Positions 35,734 through 54,356 of a DNA stretch of 64,000 nt are shown in pieces (the stretch's first letter is position 1; each line of letters begins with the position of its first letter). The stretch is from Psilocybe cubensis (Eukaryota): NCBI GenBank assembly GCA_017499595.2, contig CM039005.1:1674001-1738000 (forward strand), given 5' to 3'. The translations under genes were made by a program, and so were the position numbers. Under the pieces are notes generated by a model. It made no database searches, was not told where the DNA came from, and worked only from the letters and a program-made list of their open reading frames with translations.

Positions 35734-36207
35734 CTAGTTGACCCTGCCGGAATGCAAGAAAACGGCGATGGCGTAAACCAGGTTGCTGGCCGAGCCAAAC
35801 CAATAAATAACATGGCACTTTGGGTTGTCAATCTGAATACACGTGGGGTCATCAGAGAGGAGAAGCGATCTTGTCAACTCGAATAGATCAGCGAAGTTGT
35901 GTTCTAAATCGTCGTTGTTCAGGCTAGCGGATATGCGTATCTTGTGCACATCATGAGTAATCGGCTATGTACGCATTCTTGAGGTCGAGGCAAGTTCAGG
36001 CAAACTTGTCATCAGATTTTTCAAAAGAGACTTGGCGATGTTGAGAAATTCCGACCCCAATGGCAACATTCTATGCTGCTCTGCGAACGGAATTCCGAGA
36101 GGAGCCGGTTGGAACAGAGTGATGACGGGTAGAAGTCTTCCAAAGGTTTCCTTCTCGCCGGTAAATTTTGCTTCGGTTAAGCGGTTCGGCAAGTCGGGAT
36201 GATCCAC
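35734..36207 (-). CDS. Possible small hypothetical protein or gene fragment
   Basis: Two consecutive minus-strand ORFs (80 and 71 aa) with globular-like composition; splicing unclear. Confidence 0.25.
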
Positions 36208-36566
36208 TTCTAGTCAATTTTCACACCTGTTTCGACATTCAACTCACCCCTATACAGATACACTAGCACACTTAGAGCGGTCATATCAAAGTTGAAATGC
36301 GAGTGGCATAAAATGTGGCCCCACAGGACGGGTGCACGTTGACCCAAACCACTTGAAAAATTTAGATAGATAACAAATTTGACGCGGTTGTTTACAGGTT
36401 TAAATAACCAAAGGAAATAAGGTCCTTTGAGCGGTAAAAATCAAAGAGATCTTAACAAAATATCACACCAGACCAGTTAGGGGTACTGCAGAAAAAACAT
36501 GATGGTAAGCGATGCAAGGGTCTGATATTACCCTGACGCAGTCTCTATGCCGTATAGCAGAAAATA

Positions 36567-38649
36567 TCATTGAGCGTCCTGGATGATAGTGGCGGCCGCT
36601 TTTTCAGATATCATGTAGACTGCGGCAACGATGTAGAGACTAGGAATGTTTGGAAACACGCTGGCGTCCACAACTCGAAGGCCCGAGACACCTTTGACAC
36701 GGAATTTCGAGTCCAGCACAGAAGTTGTTATGTCGTCATCTGCGCCAATGGGAACTGAACAACTTGCGTGATGACCCCAGGCTTCGTCCCTAATCCATTG
36801 CTTCACGTCAGCTTCGCTTTGAATGGCTGGCCCGGGGATCTCTTCAGTGAAAAAACCGTCAAGTGGAAGTGCAGATTTGAACATCTTCCGAGCAAGCTGC
36901 ACGCCTTCGAACGACGCTTGCGCGTCAAGATCCCCGCCCACTGTATAACTCTTGAAGCTGATCTGAGGAGTATCCCTTGGGTCACTCGATCGAAGGGTGA
37001 CTGTGCCTGCGTTATTCCGACTATGAGCTTTGAGCACCAACCACGTCCAGTGCCGACTGTCGGCGTTTGTGCGATTTGAGTAGCCAGGGAAATAGCCATG
37101 GAAGTTCGCTGGTACACCTGCAATAATAATATCGGCCTCCGTCGGTGCAGAGACGCTTGTTTGCTGCACAATGCCTAACGCGTACCCATTGGATGCGTAT
37201 AGACCGTGGTCAAGCGAATTATCGCGCCATTGAATGAAGCAGGGATCATCCGTGGTGTTGAGGAATGTGCAGCCAGCTAGATCAACAAAGCCGCTGTCTG
37301 CTGAGCCAACAACGCCGACTTCGTATCTGTCCTGCATGTTGGTGCCGACCGCGGGCGAGTCGAGCACGACAGGAATATCAAACTGAGAGAGTTCATCAGC
37401 TGGACCGATACCAGAAAGCTTTAAGAGCTGTGGAGTGTTGAATGTTCCTCCCGACAAAATTACTTCGCGATTGGCGAAGAAAGTCCCGGAGCCAGTTGGA
37501 TTCGCCCCGTCAGAATTTGGATCGGCTCGGTATAGGTGGCTTCCCTGGAGATACTCCACACCTATTGCACGGGGAGTCCCAGAAGTGGAGTTGGTATCGA
37601 AGATAACCCGCGTCACAAGGGTATTGAGTTCAATGTCGAGTTTGAATTGTTTGCTGCCGTCCGCATTTACGGCATTAGCGGTGTCCAATATTAGTTTACG
37701 TTGGCTCGAACGCGTCTTGGGTCCGTTGGAAACAGAAATAGGAACCTGGTAAAGTCCTGTAGTTGTATCTCGTGTAGGTGAGTCGTTGTTGAGATCCGTA
37801 ATCAGGACTTGGGCTAAGCCGCTGAGTGTTGATAATAAACTGCCGAGTAGACCTTGACCCATCGCGGTGGCAGCGCCTTGCACAAGACTCAACACTTTCG
37901 TGTCCTTGAGAACAAGATTGAGGCTGGTGAGCGAGGTGTCAAGCCAACCAGCAAATCCATGGCCCGATGTTCCCGGCAAGACATATTGGTTGTTTTCTAA
38001 TTTCTCCCAGAATTGACGCATATTGGCAGCACTCCACGATGAGTCTCCAGTGATGGTCGCAATATTATTCCAGTCGCTTTCAGCAGGATATATCATCACC
38101 ATGGCATTGTGTTCCGCACACCCACCCAAGGTTCCTGTCCTGGGATAGTAAATCCCAAGAGGTTCGCTTCCAGCAGGAGGATTTGGGCCAACAAAGAAAC
38201 GACCATCGGGTTGCTTCCAGGTAAATTTTGAGTCGCGTTGGGCTGTTGCAGGGTCATCGTAGTGCGAGACAAAAAATTGCCAGTGAATTGGCGTATACTC
38301 GGAAGCCTGGGCGTTCAACGCAGGCACCCGAACAAAATCGTCGTCACCATTATCGTCTCCGGCATCAACCAACAGGACAGAAAAACCTGCTTGAGCTAGT
38401 CGAGCAGCCAGCGGACCCCCGCCAGGGCCAGACCCAACTATGATATAATCCCATGTATTGGTAGACGAATCATTAGCGGCACGGGGTTCTCGTTGGTTTA
38501 TTGAGGCTGCATTGACATACAGGAGGTGCCTTGGGATATATCAGACGTCTAATCTTCTTAAAACAGAGTAATTCAAGTACTCACCAACACAGAAAGTAGA
38601 TGAAGGATAAACAGGACAAGGAACCTTTGAAGCACCCCATTGCACGCAT
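36567..38649 (-). CDS. Secreted GMC oxidoreductase (CAZy AA3), one intron
   Basis: Rossmann motif WDYIIVGSGPGGGPLAARLA, YPRTGTLGGCAEHN, EVILSGGTFNTPQLLKLSGIGP, catalytic WGHHAS, GLRVVDASVFP; signal-like first exon. Confidence 0.95.
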
Positions 38650-40308
38650 TTATTCGTTGACTAGTCAAATCTAAAGAATTGACCACTCGGGTAAGCGTCA
38701 AAGAGTTACTACGATCTTATTGCTCACCGCTGGCAGATCGAGAGCAAGCCTTTCACTTAGACTCTGATACTGTCAAAGCCACGGGCGTAAACGAACAGGT
38801 TAATGGGCAGCGTGGTTTATAAAGCATCATCGCCAACTTTTTTCATGTGAGTTTGGTACAGAATAGAAATGATCAACTGCTCACCAAAGTATTCAGAATC
38901 CCGGGGTGGTCCTAATGAACGCCAAAAACTTTCTCATGGAAATCTAACCCTGACTTGACAGTAACCTAGTGTTCCAAATTTTTTCTTCGACCGAGGCATG
39001 AAAGCGAAACTCGAAAGACGAAATTAGGCGTAAAATGTGTCCTGTTCCCTGAAGTTTAGGATGAAGCCTCTGTCCATAGCACGGTTCTGAGCGCAAATAT
39101 CAGGTTATTTCTCGTGTAAATATTCCCACTATGTGTCCTAAATTCATCAGAGAAGCACCTTTCATCTTAGTATGTTTTAAGAACAGGACGCAAAACATAG
39201 CTCACAGAAGGACGTCAAAAAAACGTCAAAAAAGTCCGTTTTGCCGTCCATCTTCTATCGGTTAGAAGAGTGTAGCATGTTTGCATGATCCAAATTACGC
39301 CTGATTGCTTTCGATATGTTGTTTGAAGGTATAAAATTTGTCCCGGCTGGTAGTTGCTTGTGCCAGGATATGTACGCGTAACACAAGAGAGGCCAAGCAC
39401 GTGTCACGATTTGTTGACAGCGAAAACTTCCATTCAAATTCCCCGTTGATTGATTAGAAGCTGAGCTCTCAGCTCACATTTACCTGCCAAAATTCTACGT
39501 ATAATTCACAGTCTATTTATCTGTCCAGTGATTTTGCACCTTTTCCGGAATTACAAGTTCCTACCGCATTATAAGTAGCCAAGTGACCATATGGGCCCTT
39601 CGGTTCATTGCAAGTTTGAACTCTGATTTCCAATGGAATGACATCTCTTGTTCACTGCCAGAAAATCTCAACCCGCAGTCGGCCCTTTCGCTATGACAAA
39701 TTTTCGGTCTGAAACCATATATCTACTGCATATACATGCGTTCACGTTGAGAAATCCACTCTCGCTAAGAAATCTCATGGAACTTCCAAAGGATGCTGAG
39801 TATACAAATACAAAGCCAGGTTCGTCCAGTGTGTCCAAACTTCCACTCTGAGAGTGAAAAACTTAAATACAGCTTCTTTTGTACATGCCAGATGCACTGG
39901 AATGAGGATAATCAGTCCTCCCGTACCATCAAGTCTGAATGCATTCGAGTCCACCTTTAGATCAATTCAATTTTTATTTGACCACTAACAATGATTTCAA
40001 AGGTACCATATATGTGCCCATCATCTCAAAGGTCTCAACCGGAAATAACATGTAGTCCACATTGGGACTGCGCCATTCCTGCGGGAATTTGAGGTTGATT
40101 TAATTGTTCAAACAAGGTGTTGGATCTCTTCCGAAACCAGTGGAAACAACGGTGCAGTGACATTGACTTTCGTTAAAAGCATTGATTCAGAATTAGATTA
40201 ATCATAAATAGTACGAAAAAGCTACAATATATCAACTCAATGATATGTTGAAAAGGATACTTTAATTTCTTTTGTTACCTATAAACCACCACAAAGACGC
40301 CCCCCCTT

Positions 40309-43300
40309 CTAGACGCCGTCGTTATCTTGACCAGGATCACCGTTGGGGTTTTGGGATCCACTTCCACCTGGTTGATTGGGATTGCCCGGTTGGAACATTC
40401 TACTTTGACGATATCCGCCCCAGTTGAATGTCTGTCGTCCACAGTCATCGGGAGGATTTAAAACAAGCTGCCCACGAGTGGAGCCTGTATAGGTGTCGAG
40501 AGTCATGATTCCATTGTTGATCATGTAATTTCCGAAACGAGTCATAAGCGCTGCCCACTCATTCAAATGGTTGTCGTTGTCGTTGTCGTCTCCCGGGTAC
40601 CAGAAAAGATCGTTTTGATTACCACAGTTTAGAACTCGGGCGCGACGATTGCGATTGGGATCCTGATTGTCAACTCGCCCACGTCCGTTATTTCCCCGTC
40701 TAAATTGACCGTGGAAAGCGACGACGGCATGTATACCTGGTGCAGCGCCATGAGTAGCCGTTGCCTGTCTAATGTGATCGGTGTGGAAGTGGAAAACGAC
40801 ATAACGATCCGGATTAGTGTGTGCATCGGAAGGATTTTCGTCTTGGAAATTAGAGTTAATTCCTCCTGCCCCACTTCCAGAGGGTAGATTCCAGACGACT
40901 GATTGCGCCTCCGTTAATCAAACACATATACTATGAAGTCTGAGAAACATACCTTCAAGGATGGTTTCTTCAGATCCAGATCCTGTTGCAAGAATCATCT
41001 GCTCATATTCAATGGTCATTTGACCGTTCAGAATGGCCTCCACCATGAAACCTTATGCAATAATTTAGCTCGACAAAGAGTACAGAGTGGTAATTACTCA
41101 CCCCACGATGGTTCTCCGTCGGGCCCTGTGTTGGTTGTGTGTTCACTGTCACCCAGGTTCCTCGAAAGTAAGGAAGCCTTCTCCGATGCTGTCGAGCTGA
41201 CATTGTCAATGTTCTCAAAGCTGGTAAAGCCTCTATGCCAGAAGTCGGATGCACTCGTATCTCGTCTGCTGACCAGGTTACAGGAATTGGTGCAAACTTG
41301 GGTTCGGCTGCTATGATAGTCGGCTAAGAAGTTGATTGCATCATTCCCCATGCAAAGCAAGCTCTCCGATAGCGAAAGTTGATCCATATTTGGCCTTTAT
41401 AAATTCATGAGCATTAAGTCATTTCGTCAATAGTTGTTTATGTCAACGCACCAGTCGCCAAAGTATGAGGATATATTCGAAACAAACAGTCCATGACTCG
41501 CACCGTAGATTGTATCAAAGGCAGATTCCATTAGGTTCTGTTGATAGGTTTGACCATTTCCAGAAACGAGCTGCGTGAGCTGCTGGAGAGTTTGAGCCAT
41601 ATCAGCGTTGCTCAGTGTCGTCCGCTTGTCGAGGCGGGAGAGAATATCATCGATCTCTCTAGAGTATTGTATCTGTCCAACTTTGCAGGTTGCATCAGAT
41701 GAAAACGCCTGGATTCGCTTTGTGAAATCAGCGACTAAAGGATCATTCTAATAACCAACCATAAGCTCAAAAAACTTGTAGCAACAACGATTGGCTTACT
41801 GTAGTTGTAGGGTTGTCGCAACAGAACGCGCCATAACCTTTAGTTGATGCAACTTGTGAGAAATTTAAACGATATCGGTTCAAGGGATATACGAACCGCT
41901 CCAGCAGCCAGTAGGATCGGTTGCGATAACCGACTTTCCGGCTGGACATGTTCCAGTACAGACAAATGGAATCTGACCCAAGAATTTTCCACCATGGTAA
42001 TACCAGTCGCAATTCTCGTATGGAGGAGGTTGGTCGCAGCAGAATGACTGCGTTCGATGTTGTTGTCAGATGGGATACGGTAGCAGTTACTCTGCAACTC
42101 ACCTTGTCACCAATCGCACACGGTTGCTCACCTCCAGCGCCATAATTACTGTTCGTGAGGGCCTTTTGACCATCAGGGCATCCAGCCTGGCTGAATGGAG
42201 CAGAACAAATAGGCGCGCTTCCAGACCAATGGCACTCCGATACAGCCTGATCCGAAGCCGTCTTGAGGCAGCAGAGGACCTTATGTCCTGTCCAACATTC
42301 CGCGCCAGTTCCAGTGGTAGATGATGTAACTTCAACTTCGCCATCATGACATTTCCCGTTACAGAATGGCGCACCACCTCGCCATGTGCAAGTTGGCATG
42401 TCGTTGCTTGGGCAGCAATACAGTCGCATATCGTCGCCTGAACAGCCGGTGTTGGTCCCAGTGTTACCCCTATTCTTACCGTCGCTGCGCTGCGCAGGGC
42501 TTAACCCCGCAGGGCATGATTTACCACATTCGCCGAGCTGGCACGAGGTAATGGGGTCAGATTGTTTTGTTGCTAGAAGCGATAAAGCTTGTCGTCCAGT
42601 TGACTTGGACAAAGCACCGGCGGCATTGCCCTTCGCGTCATCCGTAGAAGAGGCCCAAACCATGGTCCCACCGAGACAGTGCGAGTTGGCGTAGTCAATC
42701 TTCATCTTGAAAGTGTCAGAATCGTCATATGATACCCATTGGTTGTTATTATATGTGACCATTTTGACGGCAGCTTTAGTATCGGTCGCGACATGGGCGC
42801 CTGCTGCGACAAGGCGTTGAATTTCGGCGAACGAGAGGGTTCCGACGGATTGGGTACATGTGCCAGCATCTCCCCCAGAAGTGAAGACACAACCAGGGGT
42901 ATTACAGCTAGGATCAGCGAGGGTAAACGAACGACCATAGAATCCAAGTCCCAGTACGACGTTGTCTGGGTTAATTTTGTTACGCCAGAGGAGAGACAAG
43001 GCTTCATCAATTTCCGTAAGATTGGTGTGGGCAGCAATGTACGGTCCCAAAAATTTGTTTGTCGAATCCCAAGTACCGTGAAGGTCATAAGACATGAGGT
43101 TGAACCAATCGATCGTCTTCTCAATGTTCACGATATCAAAGTGTTGGAGGTACCAAAACGACGATGGAATCTGAGAAAGCAGTTATTATCAGCATTGCAA
43201 CATGAGTGGAAAGGAAGTTAACGTACTGTGATCGTAAGTCCATAATTGTGCCCCGTCGAATGAAGGGCATTTCTAAGGTTCTGCAGGAAGGTGACATAGT

Positions 43301-44181
43301 TTTTGTAATCGTCGGGCTTTCCAGAGCGTTCTGGAGCTACGGGATACTCCCTACAATGATAATGAAGTTAGGAAGCAGCGGATCATACTTGAGAAAGAGA
43401 AACTAACCAATCAATGTCGACACCGTCGAAGCCGTATGTCTCCAAGAATGACAATACCGATGCAAAGAACTTGGACTGTGCATCACTCGACCCAGCAAGG
43501 TCAGAGAAAGTAGTAGCAGTAGGTTGGTCTGGATCATTCATGGACCACCCGCCAATCGAAATCCAGGTTTGAAGTCCCGGATTGGTATTTTTAAGTGCCG
43601 TAAAGCGCTTGTACAAAGCAGGGTCGGCGTCGCTCATCGGTGATAAAGCAAATGTGGTTGGGTTCTGCATTGGGAATTTTAACACAAGTTTTCATGATTA
43701 CAGAATGCAAGACACTTACGACGAAAGCAAAAGCAAAGTTCAGATGGGTGTACGAGCCAATTGGAATGCTTTCTGGATACATCTTGTCGCATGGACGAGT
43801 AACACTCCAAGCTTCATAATACCCAATGGTCCGTTTTGAAGAGCTAGATCCGCCAGAGCAAGAAGGGGCAGTTACCGTGGCATTTCCACAAAAGTCTGAT
43901 GTTGTCCCGCAGAATCCGAATTTTGAGCAGCAAACTTTTAGGGGACATTCCTCAGCGTTGGACCACTGCGCACCCCAACCGGGATCACAGTCAGACTTGC
44001 GATCGCAGTTGGATATGCAGTTCTCTGGTCCACAGGAGTCTGGGCCTAAGCCACAGGAGCCAAACTTTGTGCAACATCCAATTTCGCAAGGTTGGGTGGG
44101 ACTGCAAGTGAATTGTGCCGACGTGGCCACACTTAAAAGGAGTGCCGTCAGCCAGATTGGTGCACCGAGTGCGAGCTTCAT
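40309..44181 (-). CDS. Killer-toxin-like (subgroup C) GH18 chitinase: signal peptide, 2x CBM18/hevein, GH18, Cys-rich repeats, uncharacterised C-terminal domain
   Basis: CSPTQPCEIGCCTKFGSCG and CPLKVCCSKFGFCG (CBM18); YTHLNFAFA, ISIGGW, FDGVDIDW|EYP (intact DxDxE), NLMSYDLHG; spliced reading continues to the stop at 40309. Confidence 0.93.
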
Positions 44182-45073
44182 GGTCGACCGCTCTTTGCAA
44201 AATCTGAAGCCTTGGGATTTCGCCGATAGATGGGAGGGTTTGGTCGGCTTTCGATAAACTCATGGCCAGTGATATGTTGTAGTTTATAAGTTGCTATCAT
44301 TTCGGATTGAAAAGGTCGTAAGCTGGCTTTAGTTTGCATCTCGTCATCATGTAGACCGTCCTAAGATCTCGCACGCGACGTAATATGAAAATAACGGAGA
44401 GTACGTTGGATGAACATGTGAACGATATTTTGGGTGTTGTGTAGTATAGATCATGGTTGAGTTGACAGGAACAGGTAACGCTAATGTCACTAAACTGATC
44501 AAATTCGGCTTATAGCGGGCATATCCGTTGGCCGAACGGTTCTAAAATGACGCTCTACACGCGCTTATCATGATGTGCAACGCGAGACTCGTGGCAACTT
44601 CCAATCAACCACGACAACTATCATCTTGCAACTGCAAACTTGCGATGTATCGAGTAACTTCACGTCATGGTTGATGTGAAAATCTCTGGTCTGTGTCTAT
44701 TCTTCAGCGCTGAGCCGTTAAAACCCAAGATCCGATATCATATGTCCAAGTTTCAGACCTTCAGTAGACCGTTTTTGCCGACTGTATGACATGTTCTGGA
44801 TCTGGAATTAATCTGTAGGAGCTTTTATGTGTTCTAAAGTTACTAATCGTGCCTTCCATTGCTACTTGCAACATTACACTATGTCAATATGTTATCTCAG
44901 GATCCATTTTCTGATTCATTGACCGATTTCATCACGGATGCACAAGTGTATTTGCGACAACACTTACCCAATTTCTTTCTTACCACTTTGGGATCCCGAT
45001 AACCGTATGTATTGTGAACCTTTTTTTTTGCACACTCCATTCATCCCCCACTTTGCGTCGCGCCGGTAGTATC

Positions 45074-47247
45074 ATGTTTACTCGACTGGCCTACCCTCTG
45101 GCCTTTTCATGGATTCTGCCCCGTGTCCATGCCCAGTTCAATCTATTCGTTGATGGAACGCAGGCCGTCTCAGATATCTCACAAGGTTGCACCACAGCTC
45201 TAAACGCGACCATTAATTGCGATCCATATCTACAACAGCTGGTGTCAGACGATTATTATGGCAGTCTCAACAACGCGACCCTTCAAAATTCCGTTTGTGC
45301 AGCGTCATGTGGTATCTCTTTGAAGTCCTATCATAACACGGTTGCTTCTGCTTGTGCCAATGATCCCCAGCCTTGGGATGGTGTACCAGCCGTTTGGGCG
45401 GGAGACGTTATATGGGCGGCCTACAATCAGACATGTTTGAAAGATCCCACCACCGGAGCGTATTGTGTCGGTAAATAACTCTTCATACTCCACATCTCTA
45501 TTTTTTTGCTTTCCTAAACTCATATCGGGTTGCATAGACCAAATAGCTTCTAGTGGTGATACTGATCAAGATATTCTTGCGCTACCCCAGACCCAGTTAT
45601 GTTCCCCTTGCACCCTAGCTCTCATAAAAGTCATGCAAAGCACTCCATTCTCCAACTACGATAGCTCATACGCCCAGAAGTATGCCCAAATTCAATCTAT
45701 CTGCAACACTGGACCTCTTCCAACTGGAGCCCAACCTCCTGCCACCAATATCACTGCCCTTCCAGGAGTTGCATCCGGCAATCCAGCTAGTTCTACCTGT
45801 CTTTCTGGCAATCATTATACTGTTCAGGCTGGAGATGATCCCCAGGCAATTGCAGTCGCACATGGCGTTCCTACTGGACCTCTGAAAACCCTCAATGGAA
45901 TCTTCCCTGACGGCACTAACCTATTCGCCGGCCAAGATTTGTACGTACTCAAATTACCGTCTATGTAATGGTAATCTTTGACAATGACATTTTCTGCGAT
46001 TAGATGTCTACCTAGGACGTGTCCTATCTATCTAGTACAGGCGAATGACAACTGTGCCGCTGTCGCTTCGGCACATGGCCTCACCTTCGCACAGCTGGTT
46101 AGCTACAACCCATCGATAAACCAGGACTGCTCTAACCTTGTTTCAAATACCAATATATGTGTCGGGCCTTCTGGAGCCGAATATACCCCTACAACGATAC
46201 CTGGGGCTACTTCAACCACTTCAGGCTTTGCAATCTCCACCGTAGCCCCTCCTGGTGCCACGCCCTTCGGAACCACCCCGGAGTGCGGTAAATTCTATCA
46301 GGTCAACAGTGGAGATAACTGCCAACAAATCTCCCTTAACAACAGTATCAATGTCGATCTTTTCGAACAGATTAACCCATCGATTAATTCGGGGTGCACC
46401 AATTTGACTCCTGGTTTGTATTATTGTGTCTGGCCGCTCTCGGACTGGAATGCCACAATCACCACAACCTCCACCATTGCAACCCCTCCAGGGCCAACAC
46501 CTTCTGGCAGCACGCCCAACTGTTACCAATGGTAAGCTAGCATGCCTATCACATGGACTCCCGCTAATGTATTGAACCTACCTACATCTTCTATTTTCTT
46601 GTAAAGGCATACTATTGTTTCAGGAGACACTTGTTCAGTATTAGAAGCATCCTTCGGCATTACCATGGCTCAACTACAAACCTGGAACCCCCAGCTTAAC
46701 AATGACTGCACTAACCTTTTACTAGGCGAAGCGTAAGTTTTTCATATATGCCGGAGTTAATATTCAATTTCGGGGCTATCTGACCCTGATCCATCGGCAG
46801 CTATTGCGTTAATGGCGCAGCTCCGGGATCGTCAATCACTTCCACCCCGGCGTCTAGCACACCAACAGTCACACCGACCTCAACCCCAACGTCAACCGCT
46901 ACCGGTTCAGCCACCCCGCCAGGCCCCACGCAGGCCGGAATTGCAAGCAACTGCGATAAATACGTTCTTCAACAAGATGGTAAGTGTTGCGGTCTCTTTT
47001 AAACTCCGGGCGCTTATCAATTGACGCCGTGGGCTGTTCGATGACTTCAGGCATCTTCTGCTTTGACATGGCCAACAATGCAGGTATAACGCTGGACCAA
47101 CTGTACGCATGGAACCCTGCGTTGAATGGGGATTGTTCGGGCCTGTGGGAAGGCTATGCGTATTGCATCGGAGTGTCTTCGACGTCAGCAGCTCACAGAC
47201 GCCGTCACCAGCAGCGAGCAGTAGAACATGCTGCTGTACATTACTAA
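45074..47247 (+). CDS. Secreted LysM (CBM50) protein with N-terminal Cys-rich domain and 5 LysM repeats
   Basis: Signal peptide; LysM repeats YTVQAGDD, YLVQANDNC...YNPSI, FYQVNSGDNC...INPSI, HTIVSGDTC...WNPQL, YVLQQDGIFC...WNPAL; Thr/Pro linkers. Confidence 0.95.
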
Positions 47248-48115
47248 GATACACATATCTCTTTCCAAGTAAGAAACAACTCTCGGCCTTCAAAACTTAT
47301 CTTTATTTTAGTGTCTTAATTTGAATCCACTTCTCTATCTTGGATATACATTGGATTCTTGAAGTACATTGCTGCGATAACGTATGGTGTTAAGGCTAGA
47401 CATTAATATTCTCTGAGTTGGCTTTGTCAAGGCATTCAGCTCACTCCAAAGTATACCTGCATTTTGAATGTTGACATCGGCAAAATGTGAGAAGCGATGC
47501 CTTCCATCAGAGTTCTATCAGAACGTCGTTATCATTCTGGTAGGATCCTTGTCATTGGAGCCTTATCAGGGTTTTATCAGTTAAGGACGATTACTTCTAT
47601 GTAGCAATTCTATCAAACACTTCCGGTTACAAGGAGGGATGTTGAACTACATGAACCTGATTCACAGGAAGGATCTCTAAAAACAAATGCTAAGCTAATA
47701 TTATTATATATTATAGCATGTACTAATATCACTATTATAATAACAATAATTTGGCATCGAGAAATGTGAGTCTACGATTATACAAAAGCGAAAGCAAAAC
47801 TTCGCTAGGAATAAAATGAAAAATAATTTCCAAAACAGTGACAAAATAGAAAAATGAATAAAAGGCACGCGGATGCCATGAAAGGCCGGGGACGGAATAG
47901 CTGAGGGATGTCACCGCTAAAAGAATTGCATTCCATGCTGGGATGACCTCCCTGAGAAAGTCATCTGAAAGTAAGTACGATAGAGGTTGCGCCTGTGGTT
48001 GGAACTTGGTTCCTGTTGTGTAAAATCAATCTGAAATGGTGACATCTTCGAAGCGAGGAAGGCTCTCAGCAGACCGGTCGAGGGCCAAATAAAACAGGTA
48101 TAGGCGTTAAACTCT

Positions 48116-50238
48116 TCAGAGCTTTAAAATCTCGTCAGTATGCTAATAGAGTGCGTGTTAACTTCATAATTACGTATGTAGTAGATGAGAATCTTACCAA
48201 TGGCACAAGACTTGAGAGCTATAGATGTTGCAGTCAACGAAAGAATATACGGGTAGATCATCTTAACCGACCTTGGGGTCGGATATAACTTTACACATCT
48301 CCCGCTTTCTCTGATGAGGAGCTAAACACCGACTATGTCCCCTGAGGCTGCAACTAAGCTCGTGGCACTTGGTCTTATTAATGAAGTCGTCCATTTTCGC
48401 TTTTTGGGACTTTTGTGCCTCGTAGATTGCACTCCTTTGAAAATATTTCACATTGGTATCACACATTCTGCATGGTATTATTGAACGAACCTTGCAGCTT
48501 CCATTATTTGTGCATACGTGGGTGTCCTGTTCTCTTTCAGAAGCGCGACGATTGCCTAATGGTATGTCATGATTATTGAGCAATAGGGGACCCCTATCGT
48601 TGCTGCACGTACGGTTGTCATTGTACCTCCATCTGGTCCTTCTACGGATTGTTGAGAATCGTCGCAAGCAGAGATGGATATCTACCGCGCCAGTCATTGA
48701 GTCAGAACTTTGACGCGGAGGCCCCAAAGTAGTCATAGAGCGTACCACTTGACAACGTCTTCCACGGACTCGACGACAAAAGCCATTACATTTGGTCATT
48801 TTCGCTTCTTTAGGTTTCTTCGGCGACCTAGATGCAATATCCTTTGAACGGCTGTGATTTTTTTTGGCGGCAATCAATAGCAATCGGGAAGTTTTTACTC
48901 GCTGCTTGACTCTGTTCTTCTGCTGGGATAGAGGTTCGGTTATCACTGAGAGCAAAAAAGGTGCTAAGTATGAATTCTCTACGAGCCACGAGCTACGTGC
49001 ACATACCTTTTCGAAGTCCATTCTGAACTAGAGCAAGATAAATTGTACGTATAATTGACGATATTCATTATCAATTCTCACCAAAGCCCCTCCATCCACC
49101 AATGTGATTGCAACGTTGATGCTCAAGGTCTGTAGGATAACTTTGAGAAATGTTTCATAGATAAACTTGCCAAGGTGAGGCCTACTGAGTAGAGTCCCTG
49201 AGTGGCATGTATCGAAGAGGGCCTATAATCCAATGTTATTTTTGCAACAGACCACCAATTCAGATTAGTCCAGCTTACAGTGAGACGGGAGTGCTTGGGA
49301 AGGCAATTTACAAGATGCTCTCTCAAAGTCTATATACAATAATTATGAGCATGAGTTATGGCAGGAACAGTCCCACTGACCTTGTCGGTAATGATCCGTT
49401 CGTGATTAATGTCGGTAATGGTCCATCCATGATTCAGATACTGTACACGACATGCATCACTTGGAATAAGGACTGAAAGCGTTGATGAGTACATTTTTCC
49501 AACTACGTCGTTCTGTAGATAATGGGAAATCCGTACATTCTTCCTGGCCGTCTTCTTCTACTCCAGCAAAATCATCACGATGGAATGAATGACCTGAGTC
49601 TGTGTTCATTGTCAAAAGGATGTTTCGAACTAGATCAAAGGCAAGACATACACGCGAAGAAAAAATCGGCGTTCGAGTTGTCAGTCATACAGTTCTTTAA
49701 TTCCCTCATCTGCAAAATAGATATTACAAATGGATGTTGTGAACGGCATAAAAAGACATACGATGTTGTCGTGCGTGGGAAGCAGTTCTGTCGGTGTTCC
49801 TTGCCTATCACTTAGAATAATAAATTTCGTGTAATTAAAATCATCTGCAGTAGAGCATTAAGCCTGCTGCACTACAAAAGAATGAAAATATAACTTACTC
49901 CTCAATAAGTCCTCTAATAAGTGTATGTCTTTATGTGAACCTGTCAGCTCATATCTTCCGTCGCCACGCAAATAGCCAATGCCAATGAGAAAAGCGATTT
50001 TTTCCTTGTCGCGATGTCGGAACCTGGCCTAGATAGAACGTGTCAATATGTATAATTGTAAAGAAAACGAGAAAGAGTCGGTGCTTACTAGTGTGCGCAA
50101 ATACAAACGAAGTTTGCGAAACACTTTCGCGGTGCGTGCTGTCTGTGATACCAGCGGGACGGTGTCGGATGAGGGAGACAATGTTTGCTGCAAATCAGGA
50201 TCTTCGAGAGGCACATAATAACTGGGTGCTGTGGACAT
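48116..50238 (-). CDS. Metacaspase (peptidase C14) no. 1, multi-exon
   Basis: Spliced: KIAFLIGIGY...LTGSHKDI; PTHDNI|MREL...FFFAYSGHS; EEDGQEEFLIPSD; ALFDTCHSGTLL; ISISACDDSQQS; LSSLVPL. TATAAAA at ~50287-50293. Confidence 0.88.
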
Positions 50239-51349
50239 GTTCCCCACTGTTGTAGGGCGGGGAACCCCCAGTGCGTTTGACAGGCTTTTTATATTCTGCA
50301 CCAGTGAGGCTGTGATATTAGTATATATCCTTCATAATTAACAGCCCCCCTCCTCCCTGGGCCATGATGACCTTGGCGCATGTGTTTGGTGATTTTCTAC
50401 CTTTGGTCCGACATTTTTATGAGGGGAAGAATTTGGATGCGTGCCAATCGACGACTGCGAACAAGTTTCGAGTATCGCGATCGTATCAGTTGGAATCAGT
50501 ATTCTTCATTTTCGTCTGCGGCCCGGTGGCTGAAAATCAGTCGCCGGTTATGTGAGAAGGATCCCCCGAAGTAACGATTCACGACTTTATACAGCACTTA
50601 TGGCAGATCGAAATAAAAGATAGGCATACTCATCACCAAATGGTGTGATTTTGTAGTAGCAAAACAGACTGGAGCGACGGCTATTCAGTTGCGAAAACTA
50701 CATATAAGGATTGTACAATAACTATCTACGAATGTATATCAGATTAACAGTTATTACGCGAAAGTAAAGTAATAGGGATAGAGGTTGAACAAGACCATAA
50801 ACGTAAGGGCTACGTAGTTTATTTCTTGTCAATGAAATGTATGCACAGAGTACCACGGCAAAACAAAAAAAAAGCAGGGAAAATATCGGATTTTTCCAAC
50901 CGCACACAAAGAAATAGGATCAACCGAAATGACCGACCGGAATGAACAAGGAAAAGGCATATGGGTAACCTTCACCTCTGATATACAATTTCTCGGAGCC
51001 GCGCAGACTTGATGATTTTCGGTAATGGAAAGGACAATCAGGAAACTGCAAGGAGACTGCATATGAGGCGTAATTAAGCACTGCCGACCTGAAAACAAAA
51101 TGACCTTACCTCGCGCATGGGACTATTGTCCCATGTCCCACATCGGCAGTAGTGCATTCGTAGATGTGTTGCCGAGCTCATGAATGGGCTGGTCAATCAA
51201 GGTGGACCTACTCTGTTATGGACAGACAGTCGAATCATTTCGAGTCAGAAATGATCTGTGATGCAAATGCAGTGCAAACAAATTTGGGTATGCAGGGGGT
51301 CATATTAAGAAACCGGTCCATGTTTGCTTGAAACACCAAAAAACAGTGT

Positions 51350-53703
51350 TTATGGAGCAAAGAGTCGTGTCATGTCCTGAATTTTTGGCTAATCATCAGT
51401 ATACGGATACTTGGATAAAGTTCAGAAAAAAGCTTACAAGTGGAAGGTCACTGGAAAGCTAATTGAATGATGCCACCCAAAAGAACAAAAAGTTGTTTTA
51501 GCATCACGCTTCAAACATGAAGAAATGGCAAGACCACTTTTGTCAGAATGCTAACCTGAGGATTTTGAAAATTATTCATCTCCACCGGATCACCCTCCCT
51601 GGGCTTCTTCCCCTTTTTACGCATTTTTTCATTTGCTATCCTGACGGCTTTCTTATACTCTCGAGCTCGGTCATGCAAATCCACATAAAAAGCGTGGATG
51701 TCGTGACTGAGAATAAGAAACACGATAAATATGATATATTCTACATCGTTGAAAAAGTTGAAAGATGCACCTAACAAGCGTCATTAGGTCCGCTAACGTA
51801 GGATGGGGATCTTTCCCTAGACACAGCATCAGCCAAGGCCGCCTACAGAGCATACGAGGATTTGCTTACTCAATATGTTAACGAGAACTTGTGTCATCGA
51901 CGTGCCGTTCCTGTCTTCCCAAGACTTCTGGCCATCTTTCGCGGAAGAAATAGAGATCTGATGTCATTAAGAGGAGAAATTTTCACAAGTAAGCCAGCTG
52001 TTCTAGGTGGGAGAGCACGAGGACATACGACGTCCGCTTGCACAGCGCTTTCGTCATGAAGTGCATGCTGTCTACAGTAGCCAGTGCAGTACATTGCTAC
52101 CGGTGAAGAACATTCCTGCCGAACGGTGGGAGAGTCTATCCAGAATTTAGAGGCGGATGTCGACACCAGGTCCGTGGTGATGGACAACTTGGATTTGACG
52201 TGCCCAGCTGTACCCGGATTGGGTGTTCCTTCATGTATTGATATAGAGTCTGTAGGCGAAATAAGAACTTTATCGATGGACGAGTGCGCCCAAGCTTGCG
52301 CCTTTAGCCGCGTTATAGCATTTGGCATTGAAATCTCTAGAAAAAGGGACGCGAAAAACGCGAATTGTCTGTTAGAACAAGGATGGGCAATCAGTTGTCC
52401 TAAAAGCTCACTTGCTCGCTGACGTTCTTCAAAAAGATCAATGGGTAATGTGAGCTGATCATTCCTCTCCCTCAAGATGTAAAGGGTGAACTCACTATTA
52501 CTATTCAACAGGGTGGCCGTCTTTCGAGTTCCTTTGTTTATCCAGGGCACATAGACGCGATTACATCTGAAATGCTTCAGGTCTGCTCAAAGGTAATCAG
52601 TACCGTTGTCCGCGTTGGAAGTTGGACTTCAGTTTCTTCCGAAGTACAGACCCATACATACCAAGCAAAGAGCCTGAGTGACATGAGTCAAAGACAGCCT
52701 AGCGGCATAATTAAGAAGGATCCACATTTACAAAAGGCCGTGCTCACAATCAAAGATGTTTTTGGTGGTAGTGGGTCAACGAGTGTTTCTTTTAGTATCT
52801 GGAAATATCTCGACTGAGCAAGGGAATGGTAGTTGGACAACAGCACCCAATCTTACATCGTCCTTAATTCTCTTGCCGTCAGAGGTCTCGATGACTATGT
52901 AGTCAAGATTATATTTCTCCGCATGATATATGTGATAATCAATCCGACTTACATTCGTTCTTGCGATCTTCTTCGGAAATATCTTCTGTATCTTCCTGTA
53001 CCGAGTGACCAGAGACTAAGCACAGAAGATGTGTTAGACGTTGCAAAGAGGATTACGACATCTCGAAACACTAACAATGGAAGAAAAAGCGATCTCCCTC
53101 TTGAGCTCCCTCCACTAATTTTTTCATTTCATACATCTTATGTCCGGATTAGACAGGTTAAATACATCAAGGTTTGTTGAACCATCACATACAATGTTCT
53201 CTTGGGTAGGTTGTTTATGACCTGGTAAGTCATTATCTATGAGGATTACAATATCCTCGGGTTTATAATCATAAACCTCTGATACAAGCGAAGAGCGTTT
53301 GAGTACTAGGCTACCAAGAAAAGCAAAAGGTGCCCTGTTACGCACCTATCAAAAGCTTCCGAAGAGCTTCAACGTCTCTATGAGGCCCTTTCAGCAAACT
53401 CTGTTTCATGGACTTCTTCTCCTGCATCTTCGTCTTCATCCTCTTCAACCCCGTCACCGCAAAGTTGTCTGATCTATTGAACCTGGCCGACAACGGCGAC
53501 AAAGGCCCCGGAGACGCCGGGGATAATGGAGGCTGGTCTCGCACTTCCTGACACCCAATCAACAACGCCTTCTTCCGCGGTGTCTTCACAGCGGGAGCAG
53601 GATTAGCGACGGCCTGTTCTGCAACAGCTGTGGCTGCCAATACTGCCGCCTCAACTGCCTGTCTCCGTCCTTGAGGCCACAAACGACTTCTGATGATCTT
53701 CAT
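51350..53703 (-). CDS. Metacaspase (peptidase C14) no. 2, multi-exon
   Basis: RKKALLIG...LKGPHRDV; PTQENI; GAQEGDRFFFHFSGHS; AVFDSCHSGSLL|DLKHFRCNRVYVPW; FQNPQ|LSSDLPL|DM. Confidence 0.9.
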
Positions 53704-54356
53704 GCCAGCGTTGCCTTGGGAAGACTCGAATCAACGAGGAGATTGTCGCGAAGGGTGCTGGCAAAGGACCGGCATATAAGGAGGGGAATCAAGCTGCATA
53801 TCATAGCAGAGTCAGCGTTTATATCAGAGATGGGCGCTACGCCCTATGGTTCGCGAGAAGCAAGGCTGTGACAAATTCAACATACATACGGTGTTTCAAT
53901 GAGATCAACGAGACGGGTTTGCGTCGTCAAGCTATGCCACTGGCAGCGATACTGTGCTTATAGATTAAGCCTTGGAGCTGATATACGGTGAACGTGCGTT
54001 CGTCTTTATGAGGTTTTTAAGCGCTTGAATTTTGATGATAAGAAAGGAGCTGGGGACGGAGTAAGCATCGGTAAGCATCCAATATATCAAAGTTGCCCCT
54101 AGAAGTGGCAATTCAACAACCGATGTCATCGGAGAAACAAGTTGTCCGTTGATCATTAGGATTCACTGAGGCCACTCCAGACCCAACGACTATCTTTAAC
54201 AAAAATTCACCCATGAAGCAGACCAATGACTGGAGCATGGACATATGAATTCACACTCATGTATGGAACCGAATGGAATATTCAACCACCAATTGAGTAC
54301 ATGTAAAACAAACCGACGAGACCTTACATAGCAATTCAAAGCCATGCATTATAGGT

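Follow-up and report, generated by a model that had tools for sequence, protein, structure and literature searches.

A 64,000-nucleotide stretch of the Psilocybe cubensis genome (assembly GCA_017499595.2, contig CM039005.1, positions 1,674,001 to 1,738,000 of the forward strand), referred to here as the window and numbered from its first letter, carries a head-to-head gene pair made up of a large chitinase gene of glycoside hydrolase family 18 (GH18) plus a gene encoding a protein with LysM repeats and no catalytic domain. Our analysis indicates that this pair was probably transferred horizontally, as a whole, from Pezizomycotina related to Aspergillus and Penicillium into a lineage of the Agaricales. 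We regard horizontal transfer as the best reading because both gene trees nest in ascomycetes and monophyly of the Agaricales is rejected for both. Gene models come from the annotated P. cubensis proteins P0001 (1125 aa) and P0121 (609 aa), which match the window at every letter; both are 100% identical to the window exons and both lie on a contig of 3,335,923 bp. The chitinase ATG falls at 44181 on the minus strand and the ATG of the LysM gene at 45074 on the plus strand, so that the two genes diverge with 892 bp between their start codons. An initial annotation of the same DNA, made from the letters and their open reading frames, had placed the two ATGs at exactly these positions, about 890 bp apart, and had assigned the DNA to a basidiomycete, more narrowly an Agaricomycete; the mapped proteins bear out both statements. 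The three principal features are as follows.

40309-44181, minus strand: chitinase coding sequence including the stop codon, 10 exons, 1125 aa, exact mapping of P0001
44182-45073, no strand: divergent intergenic region between the two ATGs, 892 bp
45074-47247, plus strand: coding sequence of the LysM-only gene including the stop codon, 6 exons, 609 aa, exact mapping of P0121

Protein searches used the largest chitinase exon (42103-43170, minus strand) and the largest exon of the LysM gene (46005-46529, plus strand) as queries. At the level of the chitinase exon, identity was 88% to Galerina marginata and 83% and 81% to two copies in Hypsizygus marmoreus, followed by 68-73% to Aspergillus and Penicillium proteins and 66% to Sphaerosporella; the other agarics, Moniliophthora (61%) and Mycena (56-57%), rank below the ascomycetes. 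Global identity to P0001 was 78.7% for Galerina, 74.1% and 72.4% for the two Hypsizygus copies, 59.7-62.9% for three Aspergillus proteins, 51.8% for Mycena and 49.9% for Moniliophthora. Three chitinase trees were built, namely a FastTree tree of the best 120 matches, an IQ-TREE quick search under LG+C20 on 62 of these 120 and a more careful IQ-TREE analysis, supported by ultrafast bootstrap, of 35 of the 120; the subsets were picked to keep every basidiomycete group together with representatives of each ascomycete clade. All three agree on the placement of the Psilocybe clade. In the careful tree, Psilocybe, Galerina and the two Hypsizygus copies form one clade (100/100), Aspergillus pseudoviridinutans, A. 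cristatus, A. floccosus and Penicillium vulpinum form another (100/100), and these two clades of four are sisters (100/100) within a 25-row clade that is otherwise almost wholly ascomycete (95/94). The remaining agarics fall elsewhere, Mycena and Favolaschia with the lichen fungus Gyalolechia (100/99) and Moniliophthora with Sphaerosporella (94/88), and every one of the 200 bootstrap trees requires three changes of the basidiomycete label. When the nine Agaricales rows were forced into a single clade, the approximately unbiased (AU) test rejected the constraint (delta lnL 539.7, p-AU 4e-58).

The LysM tree, built from 32 of 48 matches with the 16 shortest or most distant left out, mirrors the chitinase tree. 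P. cubensis, P. cyanescens, Hypsizygus, Crucibulum and one further row group with A. udagawae, A. fumigatus and P. vulpinum N7479_009679 at a support of 100, and N7479_009679 is the direct neighbour of the P. vulpinum chitinase in the sister clade described above. Mycena pura groups with Teloschistaceae lichen fungi, among them the neighbour gene of the Gyalolechia chitinase (support 94). Here too a single Agaricales clade was rejected by the AU test (delta lnL 113, p-AU 2e-66). By contrast, in a FastTree tree of the neighbouring GMC oxidoreductase, all 19 named basidiomycete rows (together with 16 further rows) fell into one clade, a comparison in which this gene is not a clean housekeeping control, having few basidiomycete relatives followed by many ascomycete ones at 54-59% identity. 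The horizontal acquisition that the initial annotation had suggested thus agrees with the phylogeny of both proteins, each nested among Pezizomycotina, and with the rejection of one Agaricales clade by both AU tests. That the trees of two neighbouring genes mirror each other argues that the pair, and not a single gene, was transferred and selected.

The pairing itself recurs widely. When genomes named in both lists (the best 120 chitinase and the 48 LysM matches) were compared, the locus tags of the two genes were one apart in Penicillium vulpinum, Xylographa trunciseda, Gyalolechia marmorata and Arthrobotrys megalospora and two apart in Geoglossum umbratile, and the records of Sphaerosporella brunnea, Hypsizygus marmoreus and P. 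cubensis give both proteins an identical longest-contig value, as would fit their lying on one contig. A scan of metagenome contigs with P0001 returned 29 loci, some of them near-duplicates. A LysM homolog was present in 12 of the 29, in every case upstream of the chitinase and encoded by the other strand, with spacers of ~250 to ~1800 bp between the first matched residues. Upstream sequence of 2 kb or more is available for 12 metagenome loci, and 11 of these had the LysM homolog in this position, the exception (L005) holding the C-terminal half of the chitinase only. Because the arrangement recurs in 11 of 12 such loci, with the LysM gene always upstream on the opposite strand, it is not due to chance. 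We therefore envisage the pair as a conserved unit of Pezizomycotina that would have entered the Agaricales as a whole. As regards the exceptional locus, L005:4912-6983 is Penicillium-like, covers query residues 462-1112 without a LysM gene upstream and may be a truncated copy. In Hypsizygus marmoreus the two chitinase copies (83% and 81%) and the LysM gene carry the same longest-contig value in their records.

The distribution of the remaining agarics may point further. A tentative extension, which we hold to be possible and not the probable outcome, is that the Agaricales acquired a self-contained, mobile two-gene cassette, each time as a block, on three or more occasions and from different classes of ascomycetes. 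The donors would then perhaps have been Aspergillaceae-like for Psilocybe, Galerina, Hypsizygus and Crucibulum, Teloschistaceae-like for Mycena and Favolaschia, and Pezizales-like for Moniliophthora, an assignment that we offer with the same reserve.

A number of observations weigh against transfer from an Aspergillus/Penicillium-related donor and have to be set beside the trees. The rows of the IQ-TREE analyses and the groups of the AU tests were picked after the first tree had been seen, 'Agaricales' being nonetheless a natural a priori group. Each of the two clades, Agaricales and Aspergillaceae, is monophyletic with respect to the other, so that the tree points to no donor species and an old paralog kept in two groups would fit as well. 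The chitinase tree of the ascomycetes is itself incongruent with their species relationships, with either duplication and loss or transfer rampant. The pair is not always intact: G. marginata has the chitinase but no LysM partner among the 48 LysM matches, and P. cyanescens has no full-length chitinase among the best 120. The base composition of the two genes (GC content 0.50 and 0.49; GC at third codon positions, 0.51 and 0.47) equals that of host genes and gives no independent sign of foreign origin, and between 38 and 51 kb no flanking repeats or traces of mobile elements were found, just a repeat internal to the LysM gene and short chance pairs. In the FastTree tree with metagenome relatives, the Agaricales-side clade takes in four metagenome loci, L001, L004, L007 and L015, to which no taxon is assigned. 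Finally L005, which stands beside P. vulpinum in the tree, has the intron after residue 700 of the P. cubensis chitinase and perhaps those at ~897 and ~929; it has none after 637, 688 and 799. These shared introns imply that part of the introns arrived together with the gene and the rest were acquired afterwards, so that not all of them arose after transfer.

Several side observations belong to the same material. In the chitinase tree the Aspergillus rows are scattered over five or more places, Microsporum stands with Moelleriella and A. mulundensis with Monosporascus; the incongruence suggests that transfer, or duplication and loss, is frequent in this chitinase family among ascomycetes too. 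One chitinase match is attributed to a tree, Carpinus fangiana, where a plant assembly probably contains fungal DNA. The P. cyanescens orthologs of the LysM gene (CVT25_010476, 88%) and of the GMC oxidoreductase gene (CVT25_010483) both have a longest-contig value of 101232; no chitinase of at least 624 aa was returned, and the six tags between the two genes may belong to pieces of the chitinase, to other genes or to a copy in decay. L001:32-3274, on a metagenome contig of 3297 nt, is an uninterrupted full-length relative at 66% identity, without introns; it stands at the base of the Agaricales-side clade in the FastTree tree and represents either a contig assembled from a transcript or an intron-free gene near the donor lineage. 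A Pfam search of eight open reading frames flanking L004, made for its phylum, gave ankyrin repeats only. At the intron positions of the P. cubensis chitinase, breaks or stop-containing insertions occur at 9 of 9 positions in L007, at 8 or 9 in L015 and at 5 or more in L004. Introns are likewise numerous, at different positions, in further ascomycete-like loci of the family, and because of this the number of introns alone is no marker of a basidiomycete gene.

The transfer appears to be old. The pair is common to Psilocybe, Galerina and Hypsizygus, and the LysM gene is also found in P. cyanescens and Crucibulum. The nine short introns of the chitinase, moreover, recur in near metagenome relatives. 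In the careful chitinase tree the stems of the two sister clades measure 0.15-0.17 against a crown depth of ~0.1-0.3 for each, from which, given general divergence times, we infer a split far younger than the separation of the phyla and older than the agaric families involved. Transfer would then have been followed by vertical descent and by loss in most relatives, with which the gene tree inside the Agaricales-side clade is compatible. Pholiota, Hypholoma, Cyathus and Psilocybe cf. subviscida are represented in the protein database and were absent among the best 120 chitinase matches. The host-like composition and the lack of repeats fit an old transfer, and they fit vertical descent equally.

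Vertical inheritance would mean that the pair is an ancient paralog, older than the split of ascomycetes and basidiomycetes, which was kept in a few Agaricales and in Aspergillaceae and disappeared from almost all other lineages. We consider this unlikely. Reciprocal monophyly of the two clades and host-like base composition speak for it, the branching order among the Agaricales rows of the clade, which unites Psilocybe and Galerina (84/73), agrees with that of the species, and passages of PMC2614207 describe a family with much duplication and loss. However, the Agaricales stand in at least three separate places among the ascomycetes, with one clade rejected for both genes; the P. cubensis chitinase is nearer to Aspergillus (60-63%) than to Mycena and Moniliophthora (50-52%); dozens of independent losses would be required; and, if rates were roughly even, the stems would be far too short for a split of phylum age, a point that again draws on general divergence times.

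Transfer in the reverse direction, in which the pair of the Psilocybe-side clade arose in Agaricales and moved to an ancestor of Aspergillus and Penicillium, strikes us as improbable. The sister-clade topology taken alone gives no direction, and the intron-rich structure with its one to three intron positions in common with L005 can be read as a basidiomycete legacy. Against this, the eight-row clade lies inside successive clades that are nearly all ascomycete (97 and 95 in the 62-row tree; 95/94 in the 35-row tree), the LysM partner is likewise nested in ascomycetes, the divergent pair occurs across many ascomycete classes, and other ascomycete-like loci are intron-rich too. Entry of the pair from Pezizomycotina into the Agaricales accordingly stays our preferred reading.

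The physical reality of the locus and its transcription were examined by comparing contigs of four public runs (X1 to X4) with positions 36000-54000 of the window. X3 and X4, DNA runs from another study, each cover 39813-50016 with one unbroken contig piece, and because these independent DNA contigs bridge the region we take the locus to be real as assembled. X1 and X2 have zero cover at 39606-40206, where the DNA runs are continuous, and they contain all five introns of the LysM gene as GT..AG joints, none of which occurs in X3 or X4; for these two reasons X1 and X2 were treated as derived from RNA. The chitinase pieces of X1 and X2 end exactly at the exon borders 40898 and 43170 among the rows listed. 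Spliced transcripts of both the chitinase gene and the LysM gene thus occur together in two RNA-like runs; contig depth is not usable for ranking the expression of the two genes, and two runs are too few to speak of co-regulation. Contamination or misassembly, that is, ascomycete DNA in the P. cubensis assembly, might be thought of because Aspergillus and Penicillium give the best matches outside the agarics, yet it is refuted by the DNA runs that bridge 39813-50016 and can be dismissed for practical purposes, the 3.3 Mb contig having basidiomycete neighbours, the Galerina and Hypsizygus orthologs lying on contigs of Mb scale and identity to ascomycetes being merely 60-63%. The same contig holds housekeeping genes for Sec62, an RMND1-like protein and a CLF1-like HAT-repeat protein.

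The exon structure established by the mapping is given below. The nine chitinase introns, each GT..AG, measure 50-59 nt, and the five introns within the coding part of the LysM gene, also GT..AG, measure 63-75 nt.

44181-43720, 43664-43408, 43350-43227, 43170-42103 and 42047-41897, minus strand: chitinase exons 1 to 5, P0001 mapping
41837-41800, 41747-41452, 41394-41102, 41051-40953 and 40898-40309, minus strand: chitinase exons 6 to 10, P0001 mapping
45074-45470, 45538-45940, 46004-46531, 46607-46732, 46801-46979 and 47051-47247, plus strand: exons of the LysM-only gene
45005-45069, plus strand: leader intron of the LysM messenger RNA, 65 nt, seen as a GT..AG joint 45004->45070 in X1 and X2 contigs only

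The leader intron ends 4 nt ahead of the ATG at 45074, and an in-frame stop 9 nt upstream of this ATG confirms it as the start of the LysM protein. The leader (44571-45073) is at least 438 nt long and contains 11 upstream ATGs; a leader so long and so rich in upstream ATGs may serve translational control. Since the LysM transcript contigs span 44571-45004, at most ~390 bp remain between them and the chitinase ATG.

The encoded chitinase has the following parts.

44113-44181, minus strand: likely signal peptide, about aa 1-23, recognised by eye from a hydrophobic N-terminus followed by a small-residue motif
43879-43974, minus strand: carbohydrate-binding module of family 18 (CBM18; Pfam Chitin_bind_1), aa 70-101, E values 3e-12 and 2.9e-09, coordinates derived by hand
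42640-43833, minus strand: GH18 catalytic domain, aa 117-458, Pfam PF00704, E value 8.9e-68, interrupted by introns 1-3
40312-41747, minus strand: C-terminal extension, aa 701-1125, exons 7-10, in no Pfam family, fast-evolving

A second, weaker Cys-rich CBM18-like copy lies just upstream of Chitin_bind_1. The GH18 segment covers the PF00704 profile in full (1-317), and the catalytic motif DxxDxDxE is intact, reading D-G-V-D-I-D-W-E across 43427-43408 and 43350-43347, with the codon of the catalytic Glu at 43349-43347; the D..D.D.WE columns are almost invariant in a 48-row alignment. The closest solved structures to the domain are class V chitinases and chitotriosidase (E values 1e-49 to 1e-58), and past about residue 540 no solved structure was matched. 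To judge from these residues, the GH18 domain is an active-looking chitinase. About 660 aa follow it, a Cys-rich stretch preceding the C-terminal domain of ~425 aa. This last part diverges far faster than the catalytic half: in the 48-row alignment its identity to the first row is 55-62% in Galerina and Hypsizygus, 38-41% in three Aspergillus rows and 7-24% in the others. An AlphaFold2 model based on the same alignment (predicted local distance difference score, pLDDT, 75.6; predicted template-modelling score, pTM, 0.77) suggests, with fair confidence, a helical bundle followed by an alpha/beta domain. Comparison of the model with the PDB by Foldseek gave a best E value of 0.16 and nothing credible, VIA-align against 48,161 chains gave at best Z 4.7 with a root-mean-square deviation of 4.1 over 87 residues, which is under the noise level of that tool, and the ESM Atlas gave no usable match for the domain. 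The modelled domain is therefore left without an assigned fold, and we make no claim that its fold is new.

The LysM domain PF01476 is absent from P0001 and is listed for none of its best 120 relatives. Group C chitinases are divided into C-I and C-II, and C-I enzymes are described as lacking a LysM domain in passages of PMC2614207 and bioRxiv 10.1101/2024.10.25.620242. Since CBM18 is present and a LysM domain absent, we assign the protein, by its architecture (more than 1000 aa, CBM18 and GH18 with a long C-terminus), to group C and within it to C-I.

In the partner protein, Pfam finds LysM (E value 3.8e-29) and no further family.

45074-45136, plus strand: likely signal peptide of the LysM protein, by eye
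45816-47170, plus strand: five LysM repeats, approximate and derived by hand, four from the Pfam stretches and the fifth from internal similarity
~45816-45940; 46029-46163; ~46296-46432; 46607-46732; ~46960-46979 with 47051-47170, plus strand: the individual LysM repeats

A Cys-rich N-terminal part of ~210 aa, in no Pfam family, precedes the five repeats. The fifth was recognised from residues 445-488 of P0121, which match 47038-47169 at 45%, and a 29-nt motif recurs at 46107, 46374 and 46686 inside the gene. The LysM module of fern chitinase-A and Ecp6 are the closest solved structures. With a likely secretion signal, several LysM repeats and no catalytic domain, the product resembles a Tal6-like, secreted LysM-only protein.

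By analogy with Trichoderma tac6/tal6, the chitinase would bind and cut exposed wall chitin, either that of competitors or that of its own wall during remodelling, while the LysM protein, by analogy with tac6/tal6 and with LysM effectors, would bind chitin or chito-oligomers and so shield or regulate the wall of the producer. On these analogies attack on competitors and remodelling of the own wall are equally possible roles of the chitinase. The initial annotation had proposed a co-regulated module of interfungal attack; what bears on this proposal is that spliced transcripts of both genes are present in X1 as well as in X2. A role confined to the own wall (hyphal network formation, autolysis or fruiting-body development), with no part in attack, is a plausible minority view that we would not put first. 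It is favoured by the transcription of both genes in two runs of P. cubensis with no sign of a competitor and, in the passages available from the two papers, by the expression of T. atroviride tal6 and tac6 in hyphal network formation and the action of Tal6 on the spores of Trichoderma itself (PMC4392113), and by the one characterised C-I enzyme, Histoplasma Cts6, which is exo-type and N-acetylglucosaminidase-like (PMC8042737). It is disfavoured by work cited in the text of 10.1101/2024.10.25.620242, according to which other fungi often induce group C chitinases and killing is reduced when A. nidulans loses a C-II enzyme; repeated retention after transfer, moreover, suggests an ecological and dispensable function.

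A zymocin-like killer toxin cluster, in which a gamma-toxin (an anticodon nuclease) and perhaps an immunity gene would stand unrecognised beside the pair, is very improbable. Such clusters, some with LysM-only genes, have passed from Pezizomycotina to agarics (bioRxiv 10.1101/2024.10.25.620242, in the part seen), the toxins are small and so divergent that profile searches could miss them, and some weak RNA cover is present at 38.4-39.6 kb. Yet known clusters carry C-II chitinases with LysM, a domain that the P. cubensis chitinase and its best 120 relatives lack, and the pair is flanked by a caspase-like gene downstream and a GMC oxidoreductase gene upstream. Pfam searches found no toxin or immunity gene, nor any other relevant family, in 65 flanking open reading frames of at least 45 aa (38.5-40.3 and 47.3-52.6 kb), a search that too-divergent toxins could escape, and none among the 26 large open reading frames of the window. 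Of the killer-toxin-like label that the initial annotation gave the chitinase, membership of group C therefore stands, whereas the architecture is C-I and not the C-II of toxin clusters, and no toxin or immunity gene was found.

The two flanking genes deserve brief description. The GMC oxidoreductase gene that adjoins the chitinase (window 36570-38540, minus strand) is almost a single open reading frame of 657 aa (annotated at 675 aa), an unusual structure among agarics. Few named basidiomycetes have a relative of it: Psilocybe, Pholiota, Hypholoma, Cyathus, Sphaerobolus and one Coprinopsis. Its history would involve at most one old transfer, or else vertical inheritance with retention in scattered lineages. 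On the downstream side of the LysM gene, a transcribed, multi-exon gene (window ~49030-50330, minus strand) is caspase- or metacaspase-like, with a weak Peptidase_C14 match (E value 0.0096), a Cys-His-type active-site motif seen by eye and a joint 48947->49074 in RNA-like contigs.

Pairs of this kind have precedents. The initial annotation had stated that group C chitinases are mainly ascomycete genes, with which passages of PMC2614207 and PMC8042737 agree, and that their pairing with LysM genes is known in filamentous ascomycetes, as is documented for Trichoderma tac6/tal6 in the relevant part of PMC4392113. In T. atroviride, as in P. cubensis, the immediate neighbour of a large group C GH18 gene encodes a secreted protein that has multiple LysM repeats and lacks a catalytic domain. 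That pair is reported as co-regulated in the same part of PMC4392113, whereas the P. cubensis genes, likened to it here by description, are known only to have transcripts in the same two runs; there are seven LysM repeats in Tal6 against five in the P. cubensis protein, and the host here is a basidiomycete. In the text seen of their preprint, Heneghan, Salzberg and Wolfe (bioRxiv 10.1101/2024.10.25.620242) describe zymocin-like clusters of a C-II chitinase and a gamma-toxin, sometimes with immunity and LysM-only genes, that moved from Pezizomycotina into Panaeolus and Mycena amicta. The likeness to our locus lies in the group C chitinase, the occasional LysM-only gene, the direction from Pezizomycotina to Agaricales and the lack of a 'smoking gun' donor; the difference is that their chitinases are C-II and stand beside gamma-toxin genes, while that of P. 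cubensis is C-I and searches of the window found no toxin or immunity gene. The C-I subclade (Karlsson and Stenlid 2008; Goughenour et al. 2021) shares with the P. cubensis protein its large size, CBM18 and GH18 without LysM and a C-terminal extension. Within the passages seen, Goughenour et al. 2021 name a transfer from Pezizomycotina to Panaeolus for the C-II gene only, and these passages, to which the supplements do not belong, give no origin for Agaricomycete C-I genes and no co-transferred LysM partner. The alpha subunit of Kluyveromyces lactis zymocin and group C chitinases have the same layout of chitin binding and GH18 and a similar length (passages of PMC2614207); the likeness to the K. 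lactis alpha/beta precursor is taken from the literature only, the C-terminal 425 aa of the P. cubensis protein having no Pfam family or solved fold match and a gene for a gamma subunit not having been found. The names Psilocybe, Galerina and Hypsizygus occur 0 times in the text of bioRxiv 10.1101/2024.10.25.620242, and we found no paper on the chitinase-LysM pair in these three genera, although the supplements of PMC8042737 and of the preprint may list the genes.

With this locus there is one more well-documented case in which genes passed from moulds to mushrooms, similar transfers having been published for Panaeolus and Mycena. The published picture has so far been one of C-II toxin clusters in these two genera, and the P. 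cubensis case adds the C-I type, here with no toxin gene found. It also offers an expressed and tractable locus in a cultivable mushroom for testing a group C chitinase together with its LysM partner, in a field where biochemical data are scarce. What makes it most interesting is that the trees of two adjacent genes mirror each other and that agarics may have received the cassette several times independently. If a cassette did enter repeatedly, the mirrored trees would mean that selection acted on the pair as a unit of weapon and self-protection, a chitin-based analogue of a toxin-immunity pair.

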